A stretch of 64,000 nucleotides of DNA, taken from Candidatus Woesearchaeota archaeon. Lineage in GTDB: Archaea > Nanobdellota > Nanobdellia > Pacearchaeales > GW2011-AR1. Shown here piece after piece: positions 4,461 to 61,573 of this stretch. The stretch spans positions 207,247 to 271,246 of the forward strand of contig CAZXHH010000001.1 of the NCBI GenBank assembly GCA_964639615.1. The letters run 5' to 3'. Below the pieces are notes generated by a model, which worked only from the letters and a program-made list of their open reading frames with translations, did no database searches and was not told the DNA's origin. Numbering within the stretch: the stretch's first letter is position 1; each line of letters opens with the position of its first letter. A program made the position numbers and the translations under genes.

Positions 4461-5522
4461 ATGGTATGGACTAAACCTATTTATGGTAAAGCGAAGGTCG
4501 ATCGAGCAGGACATATTCTTATAGACGAGAATTTAACGGAGGAAACAAAAGAAGAAGCCTTAACAATTCTTAATAATTGGCGTTCTTCTCATGCTTACCC
4601 TATGAATACCTTTCAAGCACGATTAAGGCAGATGTCAAAAAAAGTTGATGAAAATGCAATTGTGGTTCAGAGATTAAAAAGAGTTCCTTCAATAATAAAA
4701 AAGCTTAAAAGAGATCAAACAAAAACAATGAGCTTATCTCAAATGCAAGATATAGCTGGGTGTAGGTCTGTATTGTTGGATGTAAATAAAGTGAATCAAC
4801 TAACTGAAATTTACAGGAAAAGCCGTGGGCTAAAACATAAAAAACTCCGAGAAAAAGATTATATAAAAAATCCTAAAAAAGATGGATATAGAAGTATACA
4901 TCTAATTTATAGATATAAAAGTGATAAGATAAAAACCTATGATGGTTTACTTATTGAAATTCAAATTAGAAGTAAGATACAGCATGCTTGGGCAACTGCT
5001 ATAGAGATAGTTGATTTATTCACAAAGCAGGCAATTAAATCAAATGAAGGGGAAGAAGAATGGAAAGAATTTTTTAGATTAGTTAGTTCAGCATTTGCAA
5101 AAATGGAAAATCAGAACGAAGTTGAAGGGACGCCTAAAGATAATACCGAACTTTATATTGCGATAAAAGATAAAGTAGATAAATTAAAAATTTTTTCAAA
5201 AATGAAAAATTGGTCGCAAGCATTAAAGGTTATAGAGCCAAAACTTAAAGAATTAAATTTCTTCTTACTTGAATTAGATGTATCTGAGGAAACTAATGCA
5301 AGATTAAGTATTAGAGGTTATCCTGAAGGTGCCGAATCTATTGCAACAGAACATTATCTAGAAGCTGAAAAACTAAGGGGAGGAAACCCTGACAAGGATG
5401 TTGTTCTTGTTGGTGCGAAATCTGTTGAAGAATTAAAAAAAGCATATCTTAATTATTTTGCAGATTCTGAAGAATTCTTAAAATACTTAAATAGTTATTT
5501 AGAGAAAAAAGGAAAATTATAA
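4461..5522 (+). CDS. RelA/SpoT synthetase-domain protein with C-terminal extension (CapRel-like fused toxSAS-antitoxin)
   Basis: Motifs QRLKRVPSI, MQDIAGCR, DYIKNPKKDGYRSIHL, EIQIRS, QHAWA; C-terminal VLVGA..LKKAYLNYF. Start chosen at MVWTKP, 20 nt after the TATA box. Confidence 0.85.
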   Translation: MVWTKPIYGKAKVDRAGHILIDENLTEETKEEALTILNNWRSSHAYPMNTFQARLRQMSKKVDENAIVVQRLKRVPSIIKKLKRDQTKTMSLSQMQDIAGCRSVLLDVNKVNQLTEIYRKSRGLKHKKLREKDYIKNPKKDGYRSIHLIYRYKSDKIKTYDGLLIEIQIRSKIQHAWATAIEIVDLFTKQAIKSNEGEEEWKEFFRLVSSAFAKMENQNEVEGTPKDNTELYIAIKDKVDKLKIFSKMKNWSQALKVIEPKLKELNFFLLELDVSEETNARLSIRGYPEGAESIATEHYLEAEKLRGGNPDKDVVLVGAKSVEELKKAYLNYFADSEEFLKYLNSYLEKKGKL

Positions 5523-7806: not shown

Positions 7807-8193
7807 TCAGTAATCGTCAAACTTGTCTTTTGGTTCTGGTTTTGGTTTGTCAATCTTTTGTATCTTTGCAAACGAAGGTGTTGCAATTACAAGGTTCTCG
7901 CCAAATCCAGCAATTGTACCCTCAAGAGCATCTGTAGTCTTCTTAAGCTTTGAAATTGCTCTCTTTAATTCTATAGGGTCTTTTTGCCTCAAACTCTTTA
8001 TCTCAACGATAGTGATTGTGTAACCTTCTCTTAAAGCATTAAGAACTTCATTGATATCCTCATATTGCTTTAAAGTGAAAAGTTTTACCATCACCTTATG
8101 ATCTCTCTCTTCTTTGGTTAAATCGATTTCGATGTATTCATCGCCATCTTTTGCACCAGATGAAAAAGCTTTTTTTAATTTTTCAAACACCAT
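7807..8193 (-). CDS. sepF: Cell division protein SepF
   Basis: YIEIDL N-terminal motif; VLNALREGYTITIVEI..LKRAISKLK..GTIAG..LVIATPS SepF core. Confidence 0.85.
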   Translation of the reverse strand: MVFEKLKKAFSSGAKDGDEYIEIDLTKEERDHKVMVKLFTLKQYEDINEVLNALREGYTITIVEIKSLRQKDPIELKRAISKLKKTTDALEGTIAGFGENLVIATPSFAKIQKIDKPKPEPKDKFDDY

Positions 8194-11380: not shown

Positions 11381-12001
11381 TTATTCGAGATTCTTCTTTG
11401 CTAAAAATCCCCACCAAGCATTCTTTGTCTTTATTACTTCACCATTTTCTGCATCAATCTGTGCTTGAACTCTCATTTGAGATTTTATAAATCCAAGAAC
11501 CTTAACTTCTTTCTTAGCTTGAACTTCGTAAGCTGCTTTGGTTTCATTACCTTTTCCTACTTCTTTAAGTTCCATCTCGCAACCTCTCTCTTCACACTTT
11601 GCACCTAAAACTTCTAAAGCTCTTTGAGAAGCGCTATCTGGCATTACTTTAATTTCTGCATTCTTCCCATTTGAAAGCTGGGCATAAGTTTTATTTTGTT
11701 CTTGCTTCATAGTCATTGAAGTTTTCGCTTCAGATTTTCCATCTCCAGATTGGATTGTTGCACCAAATTCTGAATCTGTCTTAACCTTTAACTGAGAAGA
11801 TTCTCCTTTATTCATTGTTTGCGTAGCAACTTCATGCTGCCCCGAAACACTCCCGTTTCCGATATCTGAATCCTGAGAGTTTTCTGCTCCAGTATTTGGA
11901 GAAATTAAATTACCTGGTGTTTCTTGCTGTCCTCCAGCTGCAAAAACTAGTGAAATTGCAAATAACAAGACAAAAGTATACAAAAATAATTTATTCATCA
12001 T
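11381..12001 (-). CDS. Secreted hypothetical protein, C-terminal PepSY-like region
   Basis: Signal peptide; Q/G/S-rich linker; C-terminal AAYEVQAKK..IDAENGEVI. Confidence 0.7.
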   Translation of the reverse strand: MMNKLFLYTFVLLFAISLVFAAGGQQETPGNLISPNTGAENSQDSDIGNGSVSGQHEVATQTMNKGESSQLKVKTDSEFGATIQSGDGKSEAKTSMTMKQEQNKTYAQLSNGKNAEIKVMPDSASQRALEVLGAKCEERGCEMELKEVGKGNETKAAYEVQAKKEVKVLGFIKSQMRVQAQIDAENGEVIKTKNAWWGFLAKKNLE

Positions 12002-28267: not shown

Positions 28268-28506
28268 ATTTAACACCAATAGCAACAGAAAAAGCAATAA
28301 TGAAAATTGAAGCAGAGAATATAATCACATTCAGTGTTGAAGAAAAAACAACAAAGGCAGAAATAAAAAAAGAAGTTGAAGAATTATTCAAAGTCAAAGT
28401 TCAAAAAATAAGAACTAGTGTAAGACACAATAAAAAAATAGCTTATGTTCAATTAAATAAAAAAGATTTAGCAATAGATTTAGCAACTAAATTAGGATTA
28501 ATGTAA
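28264..28506 (+). CDS. rpl23: 50S ribosomal protein L23
   Basis: PIATEKA, IKKEVEELFKVKV, KKIAYVQL. Confidence 0.95.
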   Translation: MNLTPIATEKAIMKIEAENIITFSVEEKTTKAEIKKEVEELFKVKVQKIRTSVRHNKKIAYVQLNKKDLAIDLATKLGLM

Positions 28507-28511
28507 ATAAA

Positions 28512-28556
28512 ATGAAAAATAAATTTTTCAATACAAAATTAGGAGATTTTGCATAA
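28512..28556 (+). CDS. Candidate micro-ORF 1 (MKNKFFNTKLGDFA), TAATG-coupled to rpl2
   Basis: Hand translation; starts 5 nt after the rpl23 stop; homologous to micro-ORFs 2 and 3. Confidence 0.55.
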   Translation: MKNKFFNTKLGDFA

Positions 28557-28558
28557 TG
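28531..28558 (+). repeat. Dispersed 28-nt repeat / hairpin, copy 1
   Basis: ATACAAAATTAGGAGATTTTGCATAATG. Confidence 0.95.
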
Positions 28559-29254
28559 GGAAAGACAATTATTCAACAGGCGCGTGGGCATGGAAGTTTA
28601 ACTTATAGAGCAAAGCCAACTTCATTTATTTATAAAATTCAATATCCAAATAAACTTGAAGGAGAAGGTACAGTGATTAGATTGCTAAGTTCTCCTGCAC
28701 ATTCTGCACCGTTAGCAAAAATAATTCATAAAGGGGAATCATTTTACATTCCTGCATTTAAAGGAATGATAGAAGGGCAAAAAATATCCTTTAGCTCTGG
28801 AGAAATAAAATCTGGAAATATTCTTCCTTTAGCAAAGATTCCATTAAAGACTCAAGTTTATTGTATTGAAGCTCACCCTGGAGATGGTGGAAAATTCATA
28901 AAGACTGGGGGAAATGCTGCAGTTGTAAGTAGAATTATTGGAGACAAAATATTGTTAATGCTTCCTTCAAAAAAAGAAAAAGCTTTCAATTCAAAATGTA
29001 GGGCTGTAATAGGACAAATTGCAGGACATGGGAGATTAGAAAAGCCAGTAGTTAAGGCAGGTAAAATGCATTATATTAAAAAAATCAAAAATAAATTATG
29101 GCCAAGAACAAGTGCACTTAAGATGAATGCAATTGATCATCCTTTCGGCTCAGGTAGAGGAAAGAATATTAAAAGCAAGATTGCCAAGAGAAATGCACCT
29201 GCTGGAAGAAAAGTTGGTCTATTGAGTCCAAGAAGGACAGGAAAAATGAAGTAA
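28556..29254 (+). CDS. rpl2: 50S ribosomal protein L2
   Basis: MGKTIIQQARGHGS, MNAIDHPFGSG, AGRKVG. Confidence 0.97.
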   Translation: MGKTIIQQARGHGSLTYRAKPTSFIYKIQYPNKLEGEGTVIRLLSSPAHSAPLAKIIHKGESFYIPAFKGMIEGQKISFSSGEIKSGNILPLAKIPLKTQVYCIEAHPGDGGKFIKTGGNAAVVSRIIGDKILLMLPSKKEKAFNSKCRAVIGQIAGHGRLEKPVVKAGKMHYIKKIKNKLWPRTSALKMNAIDHPFGSGRGKNIKSKIAKRNAPAGRKVGLLSPRRTGKMK

Positions 29255-29255
29255 A

Positions 29256-29651
29256 ATGGAAGTACAGAAAAAACAATTTATTTATCGAGGGAAAACAGTT
29301 GATGAATTAAAAAATTTAGAAGTTAGAGAATTTGCAAAATATCTTCCTTCAAGACAGAGAAGAACTGTGTTGAGAAATTTCCAAGTAATTGAAGATTTCT
29401 TAAAAAGAGCTAAAGAAAAACTTGACAAAGGAAAGAAAATCAAAACTCATTCAAGAGATATTATAATTGTTCCGCAGATGGTTGGAATGAATATTCAAAT
29501 TTATAACGGAAAAGTTTTCAATCCAGTTTTAATTGAACCTGAAATGCTTGGACACAGATTAGGTGAAATGTCAGGAACACGTTCAAAAGTAGCTCACAGT
29601 AAAGCAGGAATAGGAGCAACAAAGGGAAGCAAACACAAAGCTAAGAAATAA
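29256..29651 (+). CDS. rps19: 30S ribosomal protein S19
   Basis: IKTHSRDIIIVPQMVG, EMLGHRLGE. Confidence 0.97.
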   Translation: MEVQKKQFIYRGKTVDELKNLEVREFAKYLPSRQRRTVLRNFQVIEDFLKRAKEKLDKGKKIKTHSRDIIIVPQMVGMNIQIYNGKVFNPVLIEPEMLGHRLGEMSGTRSKVAHSKAGIGATKGSKHKAKK

Positions 29652-29652
29652 A

Positions 29653-30288
29653 ATGGAAAAACAATACGCACCATCAAAATTAGATAAGAAAGCACAAAAA
29701 AATATTACAGAAAAAGTAGTTAATGCTCCATTAAAAAATGAGAACAAAGAAAAAGTTGAAGATAAAAAAGTGCAAGAAGAAAAAGTTGAAGAACAAAAAA
29801 TTGTAGACGAGAAAACAACAAAAACAGACAAAAAAGAAATTAAAAAACCTGCAAAAAAAATCAAGAAAGATGAAGTTTATGTTAATGCTCACAGCGTTCA
29901 TGTATCGACAAAATATGCAATTAACATTTGCAAATTTGTAAAAGGAAAAAGAATTGGAGATGCAATAAGAGATTTAGAACAAGTTGCATTGTTAAAAAAA
30001 CCTGTTCCAATGAAAGGAGAATATTCACATAAAAAAGGAAAAGGAATGAGTGGTGGAGCTTACCCTCAAAGAGCAGCAAAACAATTCATAGTATTGCTAA
30101 AGAGCCTAGCTGGAAACGCAAACAATCATGAAATTGTTGAACCAATAATTGTTGAAGCAAGTGCAAATTGGGCACCTGCACCAAGAGGAAGATTTGGAAG
30201 AGTGAGAAGAAAAAGAACACACATAATGCTTAAAGCAGTTGAAATGAAAATTAAAGAAAATAAAAAGGAGAAAAAAATAACAAATTAA
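29653..30288 (+). CDS. rpl22: 50S ribosomal protein L22 with Lys/Glu-rich N-terminal extension
   Basis: STKYAINICKFVKGK, GAYPQRAAK, RKRTHI. Confidence 0.95.
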   Translation: MEKQYAPSKLDKKAQKNITEKVVNAPLKNENKEKVEDKKVQEEKVEEQKIVDEKTTKTDKKEIKKPAKKIKKDEVYVNAHSVHVSTKYAINICKFVKGKRIGDAIRDLEQVALLKKPVPMKGEYSHKKGKGMSGGAYPQRAAKQFIVLLKSLAGNANNHEIVEPIIVEASANWAPAPRGRFGRVRRKRTHIMLKAVEMKIKENKKEKKITN

Positions 30289-30289
30289 A

Positions 30290-30964
30290 ATGGAAGAAAA
30301 ACAAACAGTAAAATTCAAGAAAGATGAATTCGCAATCAAAGAATCTGTAAAAAAGATGCTTGGTAAAGGAAAAGTTAGCAAAGTTAGAATCGAATATACT
30401 CCTGTTGGAGAAAAAATAATAATCTCTTCGAATAAACCAGGTTTAATTATCGGTAGAGGCGGAGAAAAATTAAATGAAATTACAGAATTTTTGAAAAAGA
30501 ATTTCAAATTTGAAAATCTTCATTTAGATGTTGAAGAAATCACTGAACCAGAATTTGATGCTCAAATAATTGCTGATGAAATCGCATTAGGTCTTGAAAG
30601 ATTTGGACCTTTAAAATTCAAAATCCTTGCATACAGAAGTCTTGAAAAGGTAATGAAAGCTGGAGCGCTTGGATGTGAAATAAGATTAAGTGGAAAACTA
30701 CCAAGCTCAAGAGCAAAGACCTGGAGATTTGCACAAGGTTATCTTAAAAAAACAGGAGATAGCGCTAAAGTTGTTGATAGAGCACAATCAAGAGCAGAAA
30801 CAAAACCTGGAACAGTGGGCATAAAAGTTTCAATATTATCTCCACATGCAATATTAAAAGATAAAATAACTATCGACGACTCTCTACGACAAAGTCTAAA
30901 ATCAAATGAAAATGAATTTGAAAACAAACCAACTAAAAAATTAAGAAAAAATAAGGTAAAATAA
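30290..30964 (+). CDS. rps3: 30S ribosomal protein S3
   Basis: KH domain KPGLIIGRGG; GALGCEIRLSGKL; GTVGIKV. Confidence 0.97.
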   Translation: MEEKQTVKFKKDEFAIKESVKKMLGKGKVSKVRIEYTPVGEKIIISSNKPGLIIGRGGEKLNEITEFLKKNFKFENLHLDVEEITEPEFDAQIIADEIALGLERFGPLKFKILAYRSLEKVMKAGALGCEIRLSGKLPSSRAKTWRFAQGYLKKTGDSAKVVDRAQSRAETKPGTVGIKVSILSPHAILKDKITIDDSLRQSLKSNENEFENKPTKKLRKNKVK

Positions 30965-30965
30965 A

Positions 30966-31157
30966 ATGAAGTACAAAGAAATTACAAAAATGAACGATGA
31001 AGAACGAGAGAAAAAATTAAAGGACCTTAAAGTGGAATTAATAAAATCTAAAACAAAAGCTTCAAAAACAGGAAGTGCAAATACAAAAAATATAAGAAAA
31101 ACAATTGCACAAATTTTAACATTCAATACCTCTAAAAAGGGGGTGTTGAATAAATAA
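30966..31157 (+). CDS. rpl29: 50S ribosomal protein L29
   Basis: KLKDLKVEL..IRKTIAQILT; position after rps3. Confidence 0.92.
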   Translation: MKYKEITKMNDEEREKKLKDLKVELIKSKTKASKTGSANTKNIRKTIAQILTFNTSKKGVLNK

Positions 31158-31161
31158 AGAA

Positions 31162-31461
31162 ATGGAAATAGATCCAAAAACAGGATTGCCGTTAGCGGCA
31201 ATAGAATGGGAAAACCTCACAAGGGGTTCGCAAAGAATAAGCGTAACAACCGACAAGAAAAGATACGGAAAAATTGTTACACTTGTCAGCGGATTCGATA
31301 AAAGCGTCGATGTGAAAAAAATCGCAAAGGCTCTCAAAAACGAGCTTGCATGCGGTGGAACATTCAAGAACGACGTGATTGAGCTGCAAGGAGACCACAT
31401 GAAGAAGATAAAACCTCTTCTTATCAAGATGGGTTTCGAAAACAACTCAATAGAGGATTAA
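31162..31461 (+). CDS. sui1: Translation initiation factor aIF1 (SUI1/YciH)
   Basis: KKRYGKIVTLVSG, LKNELACGGT, IELQGDH. Confidence 0.95.
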   Translation: MEIDPKTGLPLAAIEWENLTRGSQRISVTTDKKRYGKIVTLVSGFDKSVDVKKIAKALKNELACGGTFKNDVIELQGDHMKKIKPLLIKMGFENNSIED

Positions 31462-31481
31462 ACCTTCCTAACAAAAACAAA

Positions 31482-31841
31482 ATGGAAAAGAAACAAAAAA
31501 CAAAAGTAGAAGCAAAACACAAAATTGAAAAAACAACAAATTTAGCGAATGCTGGAATTGTTGACGAAAGAGTTGGAACTAGAGGAAGAATATTCGAAGG
31601 AATAGTAACTAAAAAATTCCCAAAAAGAATTGTTCTTGAATTCGAAAGAATGATTTATGTTAGAAAATATGAAAGATATGCAAAATTAAAAACTAAAATC
31701 CACGCAAGGCTTCCAGTTGAAATGGAAAATCAAATTAATGTTGGAGATTTAATCAGAGTTCACGAATGCAGACCATTAAGCAAAATCATCCACTTCGTAG
31801 TTATTGAAAAATTAAAAGATGTTTCAGAGGTAAGAAAATAA
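31482..31841 (+). CDS. rps17: 30S ribosomal protein S17
   Basis: RGRIFEGIV, KYERY, ECRPLSK..HFVV. Confidence 0.96.
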   Translation: MEKKQKTKVEAKHKIEKTTNLANAGIVDERVGTRGRIFEGIVTKKFPKRIVLEFERMIYVRKYERYAKLKTKIHARLPVEMENQINVGDLIRVHECRPLSKIIHFVVIEKLKDVSEVRK

Positions 31842-31842
31842 A

Positions 31843-31884
31843 ATGAATAAAATAAAAGATACAAAATCAGGAGATTTTGCATAA
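31843..31884 (+). CDS. Candidate micro-ORF 2 (MNKIKDTKSGDFA), TAATG-coupled to rpl14
   Basis: Hand translation; starts 1 nt after the rps17 stop (TAAAATG, the operon's usual junction). Confidence 0.55.
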   Translation: MNKIKDTKSGDFA

Positions 31885-31886
31885 TG
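31859..31886 (+). repeat. Dispersed 28-nt repeat / hairpin, copy 2
   Basis: ATACAAAATCAGGAGATTTTGCATAATG. Confidence 0.95.
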
Positions 31887-32285
31887 AAAGCAATAAGTGC
31901 AAAAGGAACACAAGGACTAAATTTAGGAGCATTGGTAGTTGCTGCCGATAATAGTGGTGCAAAAATCGTAAAATTAGTTTCAGTTAAAAAATCAAAAGCT
32001 AAAAAAGGAAAACAAACTGCTGCAAAAATTGCAGATTGGGTAAAAGTATCTGTAAGAAAAGGTGTTCCAGATATGAAAGGAAAAGTTTTCGATGCAGTTG
32101 TTATAAGACAAAGAAAACCTTACAGAAGATTAAATGGAGAGAGAATTGCATTCGAAGATAATGCTGTTGCAATAATGAAAGATGAAAAAGGAAATCCAAA
32201 AGGAACTCAAATTAAAGGTCCAATATCAAGGGAGGTTCAGGAGAGATGGGCACAAGTTGCTAAAATAGCTCCGATGGTATACTAA
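31884..32285 (+). CDS. rpl14: 50S ribosomal protein L14
   Basis: ADNSGAK, FEDNAVAI, PKGTQIKGPI. Confidence 0.97.
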   Translation: MKAISAKGTQGLNLGALVVAADNSGAKIVKLVSVKKSKAKKGKQTAAKIADWVKVSVRKGVPDMKGKVFDAVVIRQRKPYRRLNGERIAFEDNAVAIMKDEKGNPKGTQIKGPISREVQERWAQVAKIAPMVY

Positions 32286-32286
32286 A

Positions 32287-32739
32287 ATGGAAAAAGAATT
32301 TTCAACACATTGGAAAGCAAGTTCTCAGCCAAGAAAGCAGAGAAAATATTTAGCTAACGCTCCGCTTCATTTAAGAAAAAAATTCGTAAGTATTAACTTA
32401 TCAAAAGAATTAAGAAAAAAATTCGGAAAAAGAAATATTCCTGCAAAGAAAGGCGATAAAGTTAAAGTATGTGTTGGAAAATTCAAAGGAAAAACAGGAA
32501 AAATACTCTCTGTAAATTTAAGAACTTCAAAAGTTGTTGTTGAAGAAATGCAGGTTAAGAAGATGGATGGTTCAAAGGCAAATGTTAAATTACAACCTTC
32601 AAATCTTCAGATTATAGAATCTGCAGAAAGAAAGATTGTTAAAAAAGAAGAAAATAAAGTTCAAAAAAGCAATGAAAAAACAGAAACAACTAAAAAGGAA
32701 ACAAAAACTAAAGTTAAATCAGGAGAAAATAAAAAATGA
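32287..32739 (+). CDS. rpl24: 50S ribosomal protein L24 with Lys-rich tail
   Basis: SSQPRKQRK, GDKVKVCVGKFKG KOW motif, PSNLQI. Confidence 0.96.
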   Translation: MEKEFSTHWKASSQPRKQRKYLANAPLHLRKKFVSINLSKELRKKFGKRNIPAKKGDKVKVCVGKFKGKTGKILSVNLRTSKVVVEEMQVKKMDGSKANVKLQPSNLQIIESAERKIVKKEENKVQKSNEKTETTKKETKTKVKSGENKK

Positions 32740-33386
32740 GTCACCTAAAAAGACATGCTGTGCCTAAAAGTTGGCCAATAGAAAGAAAAGGAACTACTTT
32801 TGTAGTTAAACCTAATTTAGGATTTGCAGACTCTCTCCCTGTTTTAGTTTTATTAAGAGATTTGCTTAAAGTTGCTAACAACAGAAAAGAAGTCAAAAAA
32901 ATGATTCATATGAAAAACCTTCTTATTAATGGAAGACCTATCAGAGATGAAAAAGAAGGAGTATTGCTCTTCGATGTAATTACACTTGTTCCTTCAAACA
33001 AACACTACAAACTTACAATACTTAAAAACGAAAAATTAAATGCTGAAGAAGTAAAAGAAAACGAATCAAATACAAAAATTGCAAAGATTGTTGATAAAAA
33101 AATGCTAAAAGGAAAGAAAGTTCAACTTAATTTAAGTGATGGAAGAAATTTCCTTTCAGATATAAAATGTAAAGTCGACGATTCTGTTGTAATAAATTTA
33201 AAAAATAAAAAAATTGAAAAATGTCTACCATTTACTGAAAATTCAGAAGCAATGGTCTTCGCTGGAAAACACTCTGGAGAAAAAGGAAAAATCGAAAACA
33301 TTAATCAAGAAAGAAAAATTGCACAGATAAACAATGGGAAAGAAACAATCAATGTATTAATTAAACAACTTATGATAATCAAATAA
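32736..33386 (+). CDS. rps4e: 30S ribosomal protein S4e
   Basis: HLKRHAVPKSW, QLNLSDGRN, GKHSGEKG. Confidence 0.95.
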   Translation: MSHLKRHAVPKSWPIERKGTTFVVKPNLGFADSLPVLVLLRDLLKVANNRKEVKKMIHMKNLLINGRPIRDEKEGVLLFDVITLVPSNKHYKLTILKNEKLNAEEVKENESNTKIAKIVDKKMLKGKKVQLNLSDGRNFLSDIKCKVDDSVVINLKNKKIEKCLPFTENSEAMVFAGKHSGEKGKIENINQERKIAQINNGKETINVLIKQLMIIK

Positions 33387-33387
33387 A

Positions 33388-33918
33388 ATGAAAACTGAAA
33401 CAAAAATGAAAAAAAACGAGAATGAAAATGTTATGAGAAAAGTAAGAATAGATAAAATTGTATTAAATGTAGGTGGAACAGCGGATGCTCTTGAAAAAGG
33501 ATTCAAATTATTAAAATATATAACTAAAGAAAAACCTGCAAAGATTAAATCAAATAAAAGAATTCCTACTTGGGGAGTTAGACCAGGCCTAGAAGTTGGA
33601 GCAGTTGTAACATTAAGAAAAAATTATACAGATTTGCTTAAAAGAATACTTACAAGCATAGACAATACTTTAAGAAAAAAACAAGTAAGCGAAAATAATT
33701 TTTCATTCGGAATAAAAGAATATATTGAAATACCGGGAATCGAATACCAAAGAGACATTGGAATTATAGGATTTGATGTTACTGTAGTATTCAAAAGAAG
33801 CGGAAGAAGAGTTGGATTAAGAAAAATGAAACAAGGGAAAGTTTCAAAAAAACAAATAATTTCAAAGGAAGAAATAATTAAATTTATGGAAGAGAATTTC
33901 CAAACTAAATTTATATAA
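33388..33918 (+). CDS. rpl5: 50S ribosomal protein L5
   Basis: IDKIVLNVG, GNFSFGI-like NNFSFGIKEYIEIPG, GFDV. Confidence 0.96.
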   Translation: MKTETKMKKNENENVMRKVRIDKIVLNVGGTADALEKGFKLLKYITKEKPAKIKSNKRIPTWGVRPGLEVGAVVTLRKNYTDLLKRILTSIDNTLRKKQVSENNFSFGIKEYIEIPGIEYQRDIGIIGFDVTVVFKRSGRRVGLRKMKQGKVSKKQIISKEEIIKFMEENFQTKFI

Positions 33919-33927
33919 GGAGACAAA

Positions 33928-34158
33928 ATGACTGCAAGTGATTGGAAAAAAATACTAAAACAACTGGATGCAAAACCAGTTATTAAACAGAAATATATTA
34001 AACACAACGAACCAAAGAAGAGAAAAACAGGAATCTCTGTAAAAAAATGTGAGAGATGCGGAAGATTTGGAGCACATATAAAATCATACGGATTAAATTT
34101 ATGCCGACACTGCTTTAGGGAAATAGCAGTTGAAATCGGTTTTCAAAAATATAGTTAA
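33928..34158 (+). CDS. rps14: 30S ribosomal protein S14 (Zn-binding)
   Basis: CERC..YGLNLCRHCFRE. Confidence 0.95.
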   Translation: MTASDWKKILKQLDAKPVIKQKYIKHNEPKKRKTGISVKKCERCGRFGAHIKSYGLNLCRHCFREIAVEIGFQKYS

Positions 34159-34159
34159 A

Positions 34160-34540
34160 ATGTCACACGATGTAGTTGCTGATGCACTAAATATGATAAA
34201 GAATGCCAAGATGGCAGGAAAGGAAAATATTGAGATTAAATTAATTTCAAATCTACTTATAGAAATATTAAAGATAATGAAACAAGAAAAAGCAATAAAG
34301 AAATACAAAATTGATGCTAAAGAAAAATCAATTAGTTTAACAATTGGAGAGATTACTGATTGTAAGGGAATAAAGCCAAGATTTAGTTGCGATAAATCTC
34401 AGATTGAAAAGTATAGAAGAAGATATTTGCCTGCTAGAAATATGGGAACACTTATTATATCTACAAACAAAGGATTAATGACTCACAAGGAAGCTCAAGA
34501 AGAAGGAATAGGAGGATGCGTTGTAGCATATTTCTATTAA
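34160..34540 (+). CDS. rps8: 30S ribosomal protein S8
   Basis: D.VADALNMIKNA, YLPARNMG.LIIST.KGLMTH; start moved to Met11 of the track ORF. Confidence 0.96.
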   Translation: MSHDVVADALNMIKNAKMAGKENIEIKLISNLLIEILKIMKQEKAIKKYKIDAKEKSISLTIGEITDCKGIKPRFSCDKSQIEKYRRRYLPARNMGTLIISTNKGLMTHKEAQEEGIGGCVVAYFY

Positions 34541-34545
34541 ATAAA

Positions 34546-34596
34546 ATGAAAAACAATAAATTTTTCTACGATACAAAATCAGGAGATTTTGCATAA
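34546..34596 (+). CDS. Candidate micro-ORF 3 (MKNNKFFYDTKSGDFA), TAATG-coupled to rpl6
   Basis: Hand translation; starts 5 nt after the rps8 stop; differs from micro-ORF 1 by in-frame codon indels. Confidence 0.55.
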   Translation: MKNNKFFYDTKSGDFA

Positions 34597-34598
34597 TG
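34571..34598 (+). repeat. Dispersed 28-nt repeat / hairpin, copy 3
   Basis: ATACAAAATCAGGAGATTTTGCATAATG, identical to copy 2. Confidence 0.95.
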
Positions 34599-35138
34599 AA
34601 AAAAGAATTCTCACAAGAAATTGAAATCCCAAGCGGAGTTGAAATAAAAAAAGAAGGAAGAAAAGTAATTGTAAAAGGAAAAACTGGGGAAGTTTCAAAA
34701 GAATTTACATTCGGAAAATTGAAATTTGAAGCTAAAGATGGAAAAGTAATTCTTAGCTATCCTATTGCAACAAAAAAAGAAAAAAGAATGATAAATACAA
34801 TTACTGCTCATATAAAAAATATGATTGCAGGTGCAGAAAACAAATTTGAATACAAGTTAAAAATATGTTCAAGCCACTTTCCAATAAATGTTGAAGTAAA
34901 AGGAAATAATATCTTAATTAAAAATTTCTTGGGTGAAAAAACTCCAAGAAAATGTACTCTCCCTGCTGGAGCAGAAATTGATGTTGCAAAAGATATAATC
35001 ACAATAAAATCTTCTAACAGAGAAATTGCTGGACAAGCTGCTGCAAATTTTGAAAATGCAACAATTGTAAGAAACAGAGATAGAAGAGTTTTCCAAGACG
35101 GAATTTATATTACTCAAAAACCTGGGAGGGAAATTTAA
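34596..35138 (+). CDS. rpl6: 50S ribosomal protein L6
   Basis: EIPSGVEI, SHFPI, NFLGEK, DRRVFQDGIYI. Confidence 0.97.
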   Translation: MKKEFSQEIEIPSGVEIKKEGRKVIVKGKTGEVSKEFTFGKLKFEAKDGKVILSYPIATKKEKRMINTITAHIKNMIAGAENKFEYKLKICSSHFPINVEVKGNNILIKNFLGEKTPRKCTLPAGAEIDVAKDIITIKSSNREIAGQAAANFENATIVRNRDRRVFQDGIYITQKPGREI

Positions 35139-38265: not shown

Positions 38266-39660
38266 ATGGCTGATTTGACAAAAATATTTGCTTTAATCCC
38301 TGAGGTGAGAAAACCCGACGAGAGAAAACTTGCATTTAATGTAAAGCTTAAATGGACTTTGGTTGTTCTTGTTGCATTTTTTATTCTAGCAAATGTATCT
38401 CTGTATGGCTTATCGAATAACGCCTTAGAAAGATTCCAGTATTTATCAATTATCTTGGGAACAGACTTTGGTTCTATTATTTCTTTAGGTATTGGGCCAA
38501 TAGTTATGGCTTCTATTATCTTGCAATTATTAACTGGAGCAGGAATATTTAATATTAATTTAACAACAACTGAAGGAAAGAAATTTTTCCAGGGAATACA
38601 AAAACTTCTTGTTTTCTTCTTTATAGTTTTCGAAGCAATGGTTTATGTATTGATGAAAGGTTTAGAGGCTCTTCCTGGATATGCGGGGCTAGTTATTTTC
38701 CAGCTTATTTTGGGAGGAATTGCAATTTATTATATGAATGAACTTTGTGAAAAATGGGGATTCGGTTCTGGTGTAAGTATATTTATTGCTGCTGGAGCAT
38801 CATGGCACTTATTTACTGCTGCTTTCCAATTCATTAATCAGCAAGGAGGAAATTGTTTACTTAACTTTAAAGAAACAGCCTGCTCAGGTAAAGTATTGGT
38901 TTTGCTTCAATCAATAATAAACAAGTATCCTGTTGAATTTACTTCTGCATTAGGTGCATTATTGGCAACAGTTTTAATTTTCTTACTTGTAGTTTGGGCT
39001 CAAAGTTTGAAAGTAGAAATTCCTTTAAGCTTTGGTAGAATTAGAGGATATGCTATAAAATGGCCTCTTGCATTTTTCTATGCTTCAGTTATTCCAGTAA
39101 TCTTAACAGCAGCATTAGTTGCAAATATTCAATTATTTGGTGGGCTTCTTGAAAATTGGGCAGGACATGCAACCTTTTTAGGACACTTCACAAATGGACA
39201 AGCTGTTTCTGGATTTGCCTTCTGGCTTGGACATACAAACATTCTTGAATTGGTAATTAGAGGAGGTTTGCTTCCAAGATATTTAATCCAGGGACTTACA
39301 CATATAATCTTCTATACAGCACTTGCTACTTTATTCTCTGTATTTTGGGTAAAAACTTCTGGAATGGGAGCAAAAGAACAAGCAGAAAAAATATCTGCTT
39401 CAGGATTACAAATTTCAGGATTTAGACAAGATATTCGAATTTTAGAAAGTGTTTTAGATAGATACATAATGCCTTTAACAGTTATGGGAGGAGCAGCTAT
39501 TGGGCTACTTGCTGCAACAACTGATTTATTGGGAGCATTATCTTCTGGAACAGCAATTCTTTTAGTAATTATGATTATGTATCAATTCTATCAGAAGATT
39601 GCAGAACAACACATGACAGATATGAATCCTGCAATGAGAAAGTTTATTGGAAGCAATTAA
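38266..39660 (+). CDS. secY: Preprotein translocase SecY / Sec61-alpha
   Basis: LGIGPIVMASIILQLL, WGFGSGVSIFI, YASVIPVIL; start moved to Met32 of the track ORF. Confidence 0.96.
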   Translation: MADLTKIFALIPEVRKPDERKLAFNVKLKWTLVVLVAFFILANVSLYGLSNNALERFQYLSIILGTDFGSIISLGIGPIVMASIILQLLTGAGIFNINLTTTEGKKFFQGIQKLLVFFFIVFEAMVYVLMKGLEALPGYAGLVIFQLILGGIAIYYMNELCEKWGFGSGVSIFIAAGASWHLFTAAFQFINQQGGNCLLNFKETACSGKVLVLLQSIINKYPVEFTSALGALLATVLIFLLVVWAQSLKVEIPLSFGRIRGYAIKWPLAFFYASVIPVILTAALVANIQLFGGLLENWAGHATFLGHFTNGQAVSGFAFWLGHTNILELVIRGGLLPRYLIQGLTHIIFYTALATLFSVFWVKTSGMGAKEQAEKISASGLQISGFRQDIRILESVLDRYIMPLTVMGGAAIGLLAATTDLLGALSSGTAILLVIMIMYQFYQKIAEQHMTDMNPAMRKFIGSN

Positions 39661-60514: not shown

Positions 60515-61573
60515 ATGGTTGACAAAAAAGCATTAATAACAGGATTTACAGGTCAAGATGGTTCTTACCTTGCTGAATTACTTCTTGAAAAAGGATATGA
60601 TGTTTATGGTTTACATAGAAGAATTAGTGCAGACCCCTTCAAAAATGTGAATAATTTATTACAAAATGAAAAAATGCACATAATTAGAGGAGATGTGACT
60701 GATGCTCACTCTATGAACAAACTAATTCAAAATATTAAACCAGATGAAATTTACAATCTTGCTGGACAATCATTTGTTGAAGCTTCTTGGGATCAAACTG
60801 GTCCTACGAGAGAGATAAATGCTTGGGGACCTCAAAACATACTTGAAGCAATTATAAATAAGCCGATTAAATTTTATCAAGCTTCAACTTCGGAAATGTT
60901 TGGCTCAACTAATCCTCCTCAAAATGAGGGTACAATTTTTCATCCAAGAAGCCCATACGCAGTTTCGAAGACTTACGGACACTTTATAACTCAAAATTAT
61001 AGGGAAAGTTATAATCTTTTTGCATGTAGCGGTATTTTGTTTAATCATGAATCCCCAAGAAGAGGAAAAGAATTTGTAACAAGAAAAATTAGTCATTCTA
61101 TTGCAAAAATAAAGTTGGGACTACAAGAATTTTTTGAATTGGGAAATTTAGATGCAAAAAGAGATTGGGGATATTCAAAAGATTATGTTGAAGCAATGTG
61201 GCTGATGCTACAACAAGATAAACCAGAAGATTATGTAATTGGAACAGGAGAAAGCCACTCTGTTAAAGAATTTGCGGAAGAAGCATTTAAAGTGGTAGAC
61301 ATGCCTATTCACTGGGAAGGCACAGGATTAAATGAAGTTGGAAAACATAATAATAAAACTGTCTTAAAAATTAATCAAAAATTCTACCGGCCTGCTGAAG
61401 TAAATTTCCTTCTTGCAGACCCCTCTAAAGCAAAGAAAAATCTTGGATGGGAACCAAAAACCAAATTTAAAGACTTAGTAAAAATGATGGTTGAAAGCGA
61501 TTTAGAGCACCTAACAAAGTACGGATTATTAGAAGATGACAAATCTAGGCTAGATATTAATTGTAAAAAATAA
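60515..61573 (+). CDS. gmd: GDP-mannose 4,6-dehydratase
   Basis: ITGFTGQDGSYLAE, FYQASTSEMFG, NHESPRRG.EFVTRKI. Confidence 0.97.
   Translation: MVDKKALITGFTGQDGSYLAELLLEKGYDVYGLHRRISADPFKNVNNLLQNEKMHIIRGDVTDAHSMNKLIQNIKPDEIYNLAGQSFVEASWDQTGPTREINAWGPQNILEAIINKPIKFYQASTSEMFGSTNPPQNEGTIFHPRSPYAVSKTYGHFITQNYRESYNLFACSGILFNHESPRRGKEFVTRKISHSIAKIKLGLQEFFELGNLDAKRDWGYSKDYVEAMWLMLQQDKPEDYVIGTGESHSVKEFAEEAFKVVDMPIHWEGTGLNEVGKHNNKTVLKINQKFYRPAEVNFLLADPSKAKKNLGWEPKTKFKDLVKMMVESDLEHLTKYGLLEDDKSRLDINCKK

Follow-up and report, generated by a model that had tools for sequence, protein, structure and literature searches.

What do three almost identical copies of a 28-nucleotide (nt) sequence do in front of three ribosomal protein (r-protein) genes of a single tiny-celled archaeon of the DPANN group? 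The question is raised by a stretch of 64,000 nt from a Candidatus Woesearchaeota archaeon (contig CAZXHH010000001.1, positions 207,247 to 271,246), hereafter the window, which has about 30% G+C and contains two tRNAs, no rRNA gene (Rfam at gathering thresholds finds tRNAs only) and an r-protein cluster of the archaeal S10/spc type. A first reading of the same letters, the original prediction, had pointed to a hairpin with a Shine-Dalgarno sequence (SD) in its loop before rpl2, rpl14 and rpl6, and had proposed a repeated operator or processing signal that would be melted by translation of a very short open reading frame (micro-ORF). The answer that we propose, on evidence that is comparative throughout, is that each copy belongs to a translational-coupling relay cassette, in which the SD of the next gene is embedded in a short leader ORF, as in the architecture of the bicistronic design. 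We put the probability of this reading at about 0.68.

Three micro-ORFs in the ribosomal protein cluster

The 28-mer ATACAAAATYAGGAGATTTTGCATAATG lies at positions 28531-28558, 31859-31886 and 34571-34598, always on the plus strand. The copies agree at 27 of 28 nt, position 10 being the sole difference (T in copy 1, C in copies 2 and 3), and the remainder of the block, including an A/C mismatch in the stem drawn by the original prediction, is invariant within the genome. No other match with up to three mismatches exists in the window and none appeared in 100 dinucleotide shuffles, so the three near-identical copies first reported are borne out. According to Pfam, the genes behind them encode L2, L14 and L6 and those in front L23, S17 and S8, in a cluster that runs L3, L4, L23, then L2 through SUI1 and S17, then L14 through S8, then L6. 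The copies occupy the only three sizeable gaps of this cluster (49 nt at L23-L2, 42 nt at S17-L14 and 55 nt at S8-L6); SUI1 and S17 are separated by 20 nt, and elsewhere neighbouring genes overlap or lie no more than 9 nt apart.

In each gap the 28-mer forms the 3' part of a micro-ORF that begins 5, 1 or 5 nt past the upstream stop and would encode MKNKFFNTKLGDFA (14 codons), MNKIKDTKSGDFA (13 codons) or MKNNKFFYDTKSGDFA (16 codons), respectively. The micro-ORFs alluded to in the original prediction are therefore real, and all three end in TAATG, overlapping the start codon of the next gene by 1 nt. This start codon lies 1 nt past the 3' arm of the stem, as first described, and the SD core AGGAG is located inside the micro-ORF, 10 nt before the downstream ATG in all three cases. 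The features are listed below, HP1 and HP2 being the first and second hairpin of a copy.

28504-28506, plus strand: stop codon TAA of rpl23; micro-ORF 1 begins 5 nt later
28512-28556, plus strand: micro-ORF 1, 14 codons (MKNKFFNTKLGDFA) and TAA, whose last A is the A of the rpl2 ATG
28513-28530, plus strand: HP1 of copy 1, UGAAAAA-UAAA-UUUUUCA, predicted, weak (-2.9 kcal/mol), taking in the UG of the micro-ORF AUG
28534-28551, plus strand: HP2 of copy 1, CAAAAUU-AGGA-GAUUUUG, predicted (the longer stem of the original prediction spans 28531-28554)
28541-28545, plus strand: SD core AGGAG of copy 1, 10 nt upstream of the rpl2 ATG
28556-29254, plus strand: rpl2 (Ribosomal_L2_C, E 1.8e-33)
31839-31841, plus strand: stop codon of rps17, within TAAAATG; micro-ORF 2 starts 1 nt after
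31843-31884, plus strand: micro-ORF 2, 13 codons (MNKIKDTKSGDFA) and TAA, which overlaps the rpl14 ATG; this copy has no HP1
31862-31879, plus strand: HP2 of copy 2, CAAAAUC-AGGA-GAUUUUG, predicted, -5.3 kcal/mol; SD core at 31869-31873
31884-32285, plus strand: rpl14 (Ribosomal_L14, E 2.9e-33)
34538-34540, plus strand: stop codon of rps8; micro-ORF 3 starts 5 nt after
34546-34596, plus strand: micro-ORF 3, 16 codons (MKNNKFFYDTKSGDFA) and TAA, which overlaps the rpl6 ATG
34548-34566, plus strand: HP1 equivalent of copy 3, arms seen by eye, absent from the predicted minimum free energy (MFE) fold
34574-34591, plus strand: HP2 of copy 3, predicted; SD core at 34581-34585
34596-35138, plus strand: rpl6 (Ribosomal_L6, E 5.9e-23)

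The gene for SUI1/aIF1 is found within the cluster between L29 and S17 (31162-31461). An ORF of 235 amino acids upstream of L3 (25755-26462), raised in the original prediction, gave no Pfam match.

Spacers, reading frame and entry of the micro-ORF

Why should such an insert be translated? In the window, 38 free-standing genes (for example 7807-8193 on the minus strand, 38266-39660 and 60515-61573 on the plus strand) carry no SD and are preceded by a TATA-like hexamer or box, TTTATAAA or TTTTAAA, whose positions peak at -29 to -27 relative to the ATG, a sign that first genes are mostly leaderless; internal genes are joined by TAAAATG or ATGA. Since a 5'-terminal AUG and a stop-start overlap are thus the default starts of this genome, an insert of 45-55 nt that brings an SD would break the flow of ribosomes unless translated end to end. 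Moreover, termination-reinitiation is almost abolished at a distance of about 20 nt in Haloferax and Escherichia coli (PMC10666635), and a spacer of 45-55 nt would therefore itself have to be translated.

The r-protein junctions of relatives speak to this point. Retrieval based on L14 gave 80 r-protein loci (L001-L080), all of DPANN origin (labels Pacearchaeota, Woesearchaeota or Nanoarchaeota) and with identities of up to 92%, and the junctions of these loci and of the window (81 sequences) were scanned. Spacer lengths are bimodal: most are at most 12 nt, lengths of 13-29 nt are almost absent, then come spacers of 30-110 nt and finally whole inserted ORFs. The scarcity of intermediate lengths fits the strong distance dependence of termination-reinitiation. 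We called a distinct spacer of 30-110 nt bridged if a single micro-ORF starts no more than 12 nt after the upstream stop and reaches the downstream start. This holds for 69 of the 103 such spacers, as compared with 6.7+-2.3 (maximum 13) when the spacers are shuffled. In a scan for starts preceded by an ORF of 6-35 codons whose stop overlaps or abuts the start as TAATG, ATGA or TAA(A)ATG, 88 r-protein starts belonging to 21 different genes qualified, and 42 of the 81 sequences have at least one. An SD core precedes 74% of the element-bearing starts vs 41% of other starts, and is rare at tight L2 and L6 junctions (9/62 and 5/64).

At the three sites of the window, most relatives have tight junctions such as TAAAATG; in L012, L030 and L032 the identical TAAATAAA runs directly into ATGG at L23-L2, with no insert. 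Six relatives at 92% L14 identity are without the L2 and L14 elements of the window, two of them have variants at L6, and L049 carries a window-type element at S19 instead. Filled and empty sites compare as TAAA-element-ATG.

Other kinds of insert occur at these junctions. A different spacer of 48 nt at L23-L2 in L010 (about 4645-4692) contains a G+C-rich hairpin, GGGGTTCTTAAAAAGAACCT, and no bridging micro-ORF. In many relatives, co-oriented ORFs of 55-230 amino acids, mostly 60-130, lie between r-protein genes (e.g. L004 1029-11452; L019 4407-15525). Over L001-L080 we counted 151 inserted ORFs of at least 55 amino acids at 182 enlarged junctions, with up to nine junctions occupied per genome; 112 of the 151 have no relative among the others by BLASTP, and nine of the ten scanned gave no Pfam match. 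One family of about 210 amino acids with eight members inside the r-protein cluster, at L4-L23 and S17-L14, corresponds to a DEDD-type 3'-5' exonuclease (Rv2179c-like / RNase_T, E 1e-8; L020 3428-4081, L022 2337-2987, L029 2940-3581 and 7381-8004).

A larger sample of the window-type element was obtained by searching metagenome contigs with ACAAAATNAGGAGATTTTGCAT, a pattern from which both the ATG and the frame were left out. It gave 77 copies in 71 loci or contigs from several habitats, and no match in viral contigs. The consensus, ATGAAAAAYARGAAATTTTTCAAAGATACAAAATYAGGAGATTTTGCATAATG, consists of two similar hairpin half-units. In 66 of the 77 copies the element overlaps a start codon, AATG following in 63 (TAATG) and AGTG in three (TAGTG), and four further copies are inner units of tandem arrays. 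The distance from the head ATG to the stop is a multiple of three in 51 of 55 distinct copies (42, 45, 48, 57, 60, 66, 69, 72 or 87 nt), and this frame is free of stops in 52 of the 55, as compared with 0/55 and 27/55 for the other two; the modal micro-ORF length is 16 codons in 66 metagenome copies.

Such conservation of the frame might be expected if the peptide itself were functional, as a small protein, an arrest peptide or an attenuator leader. Indeed, the C-terminal DTK(S/L)GDFA is constant in the window-type element and the codons are rich in Lys and Phe. Against this, the codon differences outside the part fixed by the search are 59 nonsynonymous vs 15 synonymous, position 2 is the most variable and the third position shows no excess; conservation therefore does not act on the peptide. 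In other lineages the same architecture encodes unrelated peptides, and the identity resides at the nucleotide level, above any peptide constraint, as had been claimed from the window alone. We consider a functional peptide very improbable and rejected it on the nonsynonymous excess.

If the cassette acts as a relay, the following course of events may be proposed. Within operons the micro-ORF, which lacks an SD of its own, would receive, through the stop-A-ATG junction, ribosomes that have just finished the upstream gene; in promoter-proximal copies of relatives, translation would instead begin leaderless, at the mRNA 5' end. From there the ribosome would translate 13-16 codons, passing through the weak hairpin that holds the SD, and stop on a UAA that shares its last base with the next AUG. 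At termination the melted SD would lie about 10 nt behind the stop, within reach of the anti-SD of the same ribosome's 16S rRNA, and this ribosome could re-initiate on L2, L14 or L6, the copies serving as relay or booster stations along the cluster. The hairpin would most likely bar free subunits from the SD until a translating ribosome opens it, or else protect or display the SD. In archaea rich in leaderless mRNAs, the SD serves mainly for re-initiation, and local structure melted by the upstream ribosome has been proposed to block de novo initiation (PMC6728339). The coupling of micro-ORF translation to re-initiation at a hairpin-held SD, already voiced in the original prediction, is the reading best supported by the conservation of frame and stem and by a nucleotide constraint above that on the peptide.

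The contexts of the micro-ORFs agree with two modes of entry. Coupling to an upstream ORF is seen in 38 of 60 distinct contexts, with gaps from -4 to +12 nt and modes at +1 and -4, which leaves 22 uncoupled. In about 14 of these 22, a TATA-like hexamer begins 27-31 nt ahead of the micro-ORF ATG, so that promoter-proximal micro-ORFs sit where a leaderless start would be expected. In the L5-S14 spacer of L013 and L049 the micro-ORF has its own AAGGAG 9 nt upstream, a two-SD layout as in the canonical synthetic bicistronic design. In the window, the 57 nt upstream of the gene at 11381-12001 (minus strand) form a 19-codon ORF with GGGGG that ends in ATGA on the gene start; this may be an unrelated fourth coupling micro-ORF, and it also contains the TATA-like GATATAAATA.

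One may ask whether the element is instead an internal promoter, its A/T-rich head being an archaeal TATA box and its 3' block a conserved short 5' untranslated region with an SD, the micro-ORF being incidental. By eye, S17-L14 does have TTAAAA about 31 nt before the micro-ORF ATG, and in relative L089 a TATA-like box lies so near that transcription would begin inside the micro-ORF. However, the head AAATAAATTTTTC does not resemble the box that this genome uses before its free-standing genes, and promoter-proximal copies have their box upstream of the element, where a leaderless start at the micro-ORF ATG would place it. A promoter also leaves the conservation of the frame, the lengths in multiples of three and the stop-start overlap unaccounted for. 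For these reasons (frame constraint, overlap, mismatch of head and box) it was rejected as the main explanation and seems to us improbable, though somewhat less so than a functional peptide.

The hairpin around the Shine-Dalgarno sequence

RNAfold predicts a stem of 7 base pairs (bp), CAAAAUY/GAUUUUG, closed by an AGGA tetraloop, with energies of -3.2 to -5.3 kcal/mol and a z-score of about -2.3, and for copy 1 a second weak hairpin over the micro-ORF start. This differs slightly from the fold of the original prediction: the variable base (Y), which had been assigned to the loop, is predicted to form a U.G or C-G pair with the final G of AGGAG. Beyond the A/C mismatch, the outer A-U and U-A pairs of the earlier drawing are predicted for copy 3 only. 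They find comparative support nevertheless: the two bases 5' of ACAAAAT, which lie outside the search pattern and could pair with AT in GCAT, are A in 67/70 and T in 67/70 copies, whereas the four preceding positions are unconstrained.

In the clade of the window-type element, a stem of 5-9 bp around the G-rich core is kept in 27/27 variants. The apical pairs vary (U.G, C-G, U-A, UUC/GAA, UCA/UGA, UAC(U)/(G)GUA, UUG/CAA) and some variants have U-A or U.G in place of the basal C-G, so that the hairpin around the SD persists in relatives with compensatory changes, as the original prediction required. Because a MAFFT alignment of all variants gave no structural register, formal pair counts were limited to 11 variants of equal length. 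In this set 97.4% of cells are paired, vs 85.0+-3.0 after shuffling (0/500), both partners differ between variants in three of the seven pairs, covariation scores 0.364 vs 0.157 (0/500), and slid registers drop to 21-70% paired; as these sequences were picked with their stems already known and come from two clades, we regard the result as supportive rather than decisive.

What the hairpin does to the SD is less straightforward. The SD does lie in a hairpin, but it is not simply presented by it: the 3' G of the SD is in the stem and the mean pairing probability of the SD core is about 0.5 across the family, so that gating is as likely as display. By eye, a basal stem CAUU...AAUG that would hide the downstream AUG could be drawn in S3- and L14-type elements; it did not exceed the shuffled expectation. 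We also considered a C/D-box small RNA, a candidate that was rejected: L029 contains AATGATGA but lacks a D box, and the window does not have the motif.

An energy test that forced the whole SD core to be unpaired proved too conservative, as the stem takes the last G of the SD, and we used the length of the longest SD-enclosing stem instead; over all element types this is 5.7 bp on average, vs 4.8 with a shuffled 5' flank and 3.5 at SD-bearing tight junctions (Fisher 3e-4, Mann-Whitney 3e-16).

Several observations must be set against the relay. Since shuffled flanks still give 4.8 bp, the stem signal is in part compositional (A-run, SD, U-run). The hairpin is weak, at -3 to -5 kcal/mol at 37 C, and the z-scores of whole-element folding are modest across the family (mean -0.58), for which reason we dropped the description of a strongly structured RNA in favour of a local hairpin. 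Pairing of the downstream start codon is 0.20 vs 0.18 in shuffles, and sequestration of this codon is unsupported. About 26% of the elements have no strong SD core, and 34 of the 103 long spacers are unbridged, some through errors in the start calls and some belonging to a different A-rich class such as SUI1-S17. Finally, the 28-nt 3' block is invariant in the genome while the heads differ by substitutions and 3-nt indels, which coupling alone does not explain.

This last point leads to the possibility that the hairpin is an operator bound by a protein in trans, either an r-protein exerting feedback or a factor recognizing GGA loops in the manner of CsrA, and controlling a regulon. The AGGA tetraloop over the SD would suit such a factor, the more so as the first half-unit of the metagenome consensus also loops AGGAA, giving two GGA loops about 25 nt apart. 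The invariance of the 28 nt down to the A/C mismatch, the genome-specific 3' blocks and the targets, mostly information-processing genes, point the same way. However, HP1 in the window has no GGA (its loop is UAAA, and copy 2 has no HP1 at all), and stem sequences differ widely by lineage while r-proteins and rRNA are conserved. The likeness to a CsrA/Rsm site, a GGA in a hairpin loop overlapping an SD, is one of shape only, and no CsrA-family protein is known from archaea. As for r-protein feedback, autoregulatory operators such as those of S8 on spc, L4 on S10 and archaeal L1 mimic an rRNA site and occur about once per operon, in r-protein mRNAs only. The cassette shares with them a structured RNA at a start site in an r-protein operon, but it is present three times in one cluster and also precedes non-r-protein genes, and the junctions that it occupies differ by genome, which is unlike autoregulation with one operator per operon. 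By inspection it has no K-turn-like tandem G.A motif, and Rfam gave no r-protein leader match and no match overlapping the elements at E<=5. The repeated feedback operator of the original prediction is therefore not supported, given the non-r-protein targets and the 21 different r-protein junctions, and the same two facts do not fit an rRNA mimic; nothing points to a processing site either. Taken together, a trans-acting operator appears unlikely, albeit less so than an internal promoter.

Spread of the element and comparison with known systems

The genes behind window-type copies encode L2, S3, S19, S24e, S4, S11, L14, L24 and SUI1, but also non-r-proteins: RNA polymerase Rpb1 and Rpb6, CDC48, RadA, RNase PH, Trm5, UDG and a transporter. 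Exosome genes are among those preceded by the element, and the downstream genes are mostly information-processing ones. The scatter that the original prediction had set against itself is thus real, but it is not irrespective of gene starts, given the overlap with a start codon in most copies. The copy number is low: the 64-kb window has three, and two contigs of about 0.6 Mb contain two exact copies each.

Arrays and variants of the cassette were also seen. In L145 (2576-2732) four units follow one another at 45-nt spacing, the inner ones ending GCATATAG and not GCATAATG; tandem arrays are also present in L117, L106, L116, L134 and L018 (before L32e), and several loci have two serial units, each a separate micro-ORF. 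One variant carries a G+C-rich hairpin insert (e.g. GTCCTCGGCAGGAAACCTGCGGAT) in frame between the half-units and another has CACTTCACTTCGTTCAGAT (L090, L092, L101, L103, L104, L120, L124 and L132; L038, before S3). L108 (3257-3435, minus strand) has three tandem units of about 65-73 nt, composed of AAGGTGGCCTATTCCCAACTTAC...TTTACACCAA and a variable part of 23-31 nt, which in one unit matches the HP2/SD sequence exactly and in another is a distinct GGGA hairpin with TTTTCATA at its end. With three units and no spacer-like diversity, a CRISPR interpretation of this repeat was rejected.

How did the element come to lie before so many genes? Similarity among 3' blocks is higher when they come from the same genome (0.56) than from different ones (0.46; permutation p<0.0005), and pairs at least 90% alike make up 6/49 within vs 12/2579 between genomes. 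Since the same sequence stands before unrelated genes, is present or absent in close relatives, forms tandem arrays and is similar within genomes, it has likely come to occupy many gene starts of Pacearchaeota/Woesearchaeota-like archaea by copy-and-paste. Micro-ORFs of other subfamilies repeat the opening two or three codons of the gene that follows (MEE for S3, MKA for L14, MTA for S14, MKF for L29), a hint that elements may have originated by duplication of gene starts. In relatives, rpl24 opens with a sequence (ATGAAAAATAAATTTTCAAC, MKNKFS...; L011 8656, L012 8403, L029 8675, L048 3820, L051 6304, L069 8403, L109 1364) almost identical to the head of the window-type element; this could reflect duplication of a gene start or a coincidence of low complexity.

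Such spread raises the question whether the element is a selfish repeat, akin to a miniature inverted-repeat transposable element (MITE), a repetitive extragenic palindrome (REP) or a Rickettsia palindromic element, tolerated where the translation of its neighbours stays intact; the micro-ORF, the SD and the overlap would then be features of harmlessness. Near-identical copies before unrelated genes, on 71 metagenome contigs from several habitats, would be expected of it, as would the tandem arrays (four units of 45 nt in L145; L117, L106, L018), the two similar half-units and the likeness of 3' blocks within genomes. Moreover, relatives at 92% L14 identity differ in presence or absence at all three window sites, with clean boundaries, and the same junctions are hot spots for unrelated inserted ORFs. 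On the other hand, by inspection the element lacks terminal inverted repeats and a consistent target-site duplication, and its promoter-proximal copies share no target sequence; at L23-L2 and S17-L14 there is no target duplication, and S8-L6 has four extra, ambiguous nt in the window. The copy number is low, viral contigs have none, and the orientation and the position at the start codon are almost invariant, which would require targeting or very strong selection. Rickettsia palindromic elements and REP or MITE repeats are in-frame palindromic or dispersed repeats, and the cassette resembles them as a small hairpin repeat dispersed in a reduced genome and compatible with translation; it differs in its far smaller length, its low copy number and its constant placement at gene starts in a single orientation, with no evident inverted termini or target duplication. 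A selfish origin is the most serious of the alternatives, possible although clearly less probable than the relay, and it overlaps the relay reading rather than excluding it. Somewhat more doubtful still, we speculate that the cassette is a mobile ribosome-binding site: a self-spreading module copied onto highly expressed gene starts in leaderless DPANN archaea, homogenised in each genome, possibly since a genome-specific trans-acting factor reads its 28-nt hairpin/SD block, and acting as a gated re-initiation switch for a housekeeping regulon.

If the cassette does work as a relay, it would show how organisms that rely on leaderless starts and stop-start overlaps give a gene an SD without breaking ribosome flow, it would account for the missing intermediate spacer lengths of these operons, and it could supply compact, evolved parts for archaeal expression. 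As regards annotation, gene callers will miss the micro-ORFs or place the starts of the downstream genes wrongly. Full-text searching found descriptions of coupling, of synthetic designs and of mycobacterial leaderless short ORFs, and no natural repeated cassette of exactly this architecture.

The closest parallel is the synthetic bicistronic design (Mutalik et al. 2013), with its leader ORF, embedded SD2 and TAATG, in which output depends on translation of the leader and on stop-start geometry (10.1101/2023.02.09.527918). The cassette likewise has a short leader ORF, the SD of the next gene inside it and the TAATG overlap. It is unlike this design in being natural, archaeal and a dispersed repeat family, the architecture being alike without homology; its leader within operons would be entered by termination-reinitiation and not from an SD1 (the AAGGAG at L5-S14 in L013 and L049 being SD1-like), and its SD lies in a conserved hairpin, which bicistronic designs do not specify. 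In the leaderless bicistronic design the fore-cistron begins at a 5'-terminal AUG (PMC10367133), as the promoter-proximal copies probably do. Natural gene pairs linked by termination-reinitiation also have co-directional ORFs, overlaps of -1 or -4 or gaps of 1-2 nt, an intragenic SD before the restart codon and local structure that the upstream ribosome is proposed to open. In the cassette, however, the upstream 'gene' is an ORF of 13-16 codons with no conserved product that appears only to bridge the spacer and deliver the SD. Leaderless short ORFs have been described in mycobacteria as first cistrons of operons (PMC4633059; 10.1101/834739), where a 5'-terminal AUG likewise opens a short ORF before an annotated gene on the same mRNA; these are bacterial, individually distinct, in some cases Cys-rich sensors, and form no repeated cassette defined by an SD hairpin and TAATG. 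Coupling and upstream ORFs as such were thus already known, and what appears to be new here is a natural repeated cassette placed over many gene starts in uncultivated, genome-reduced archaea.

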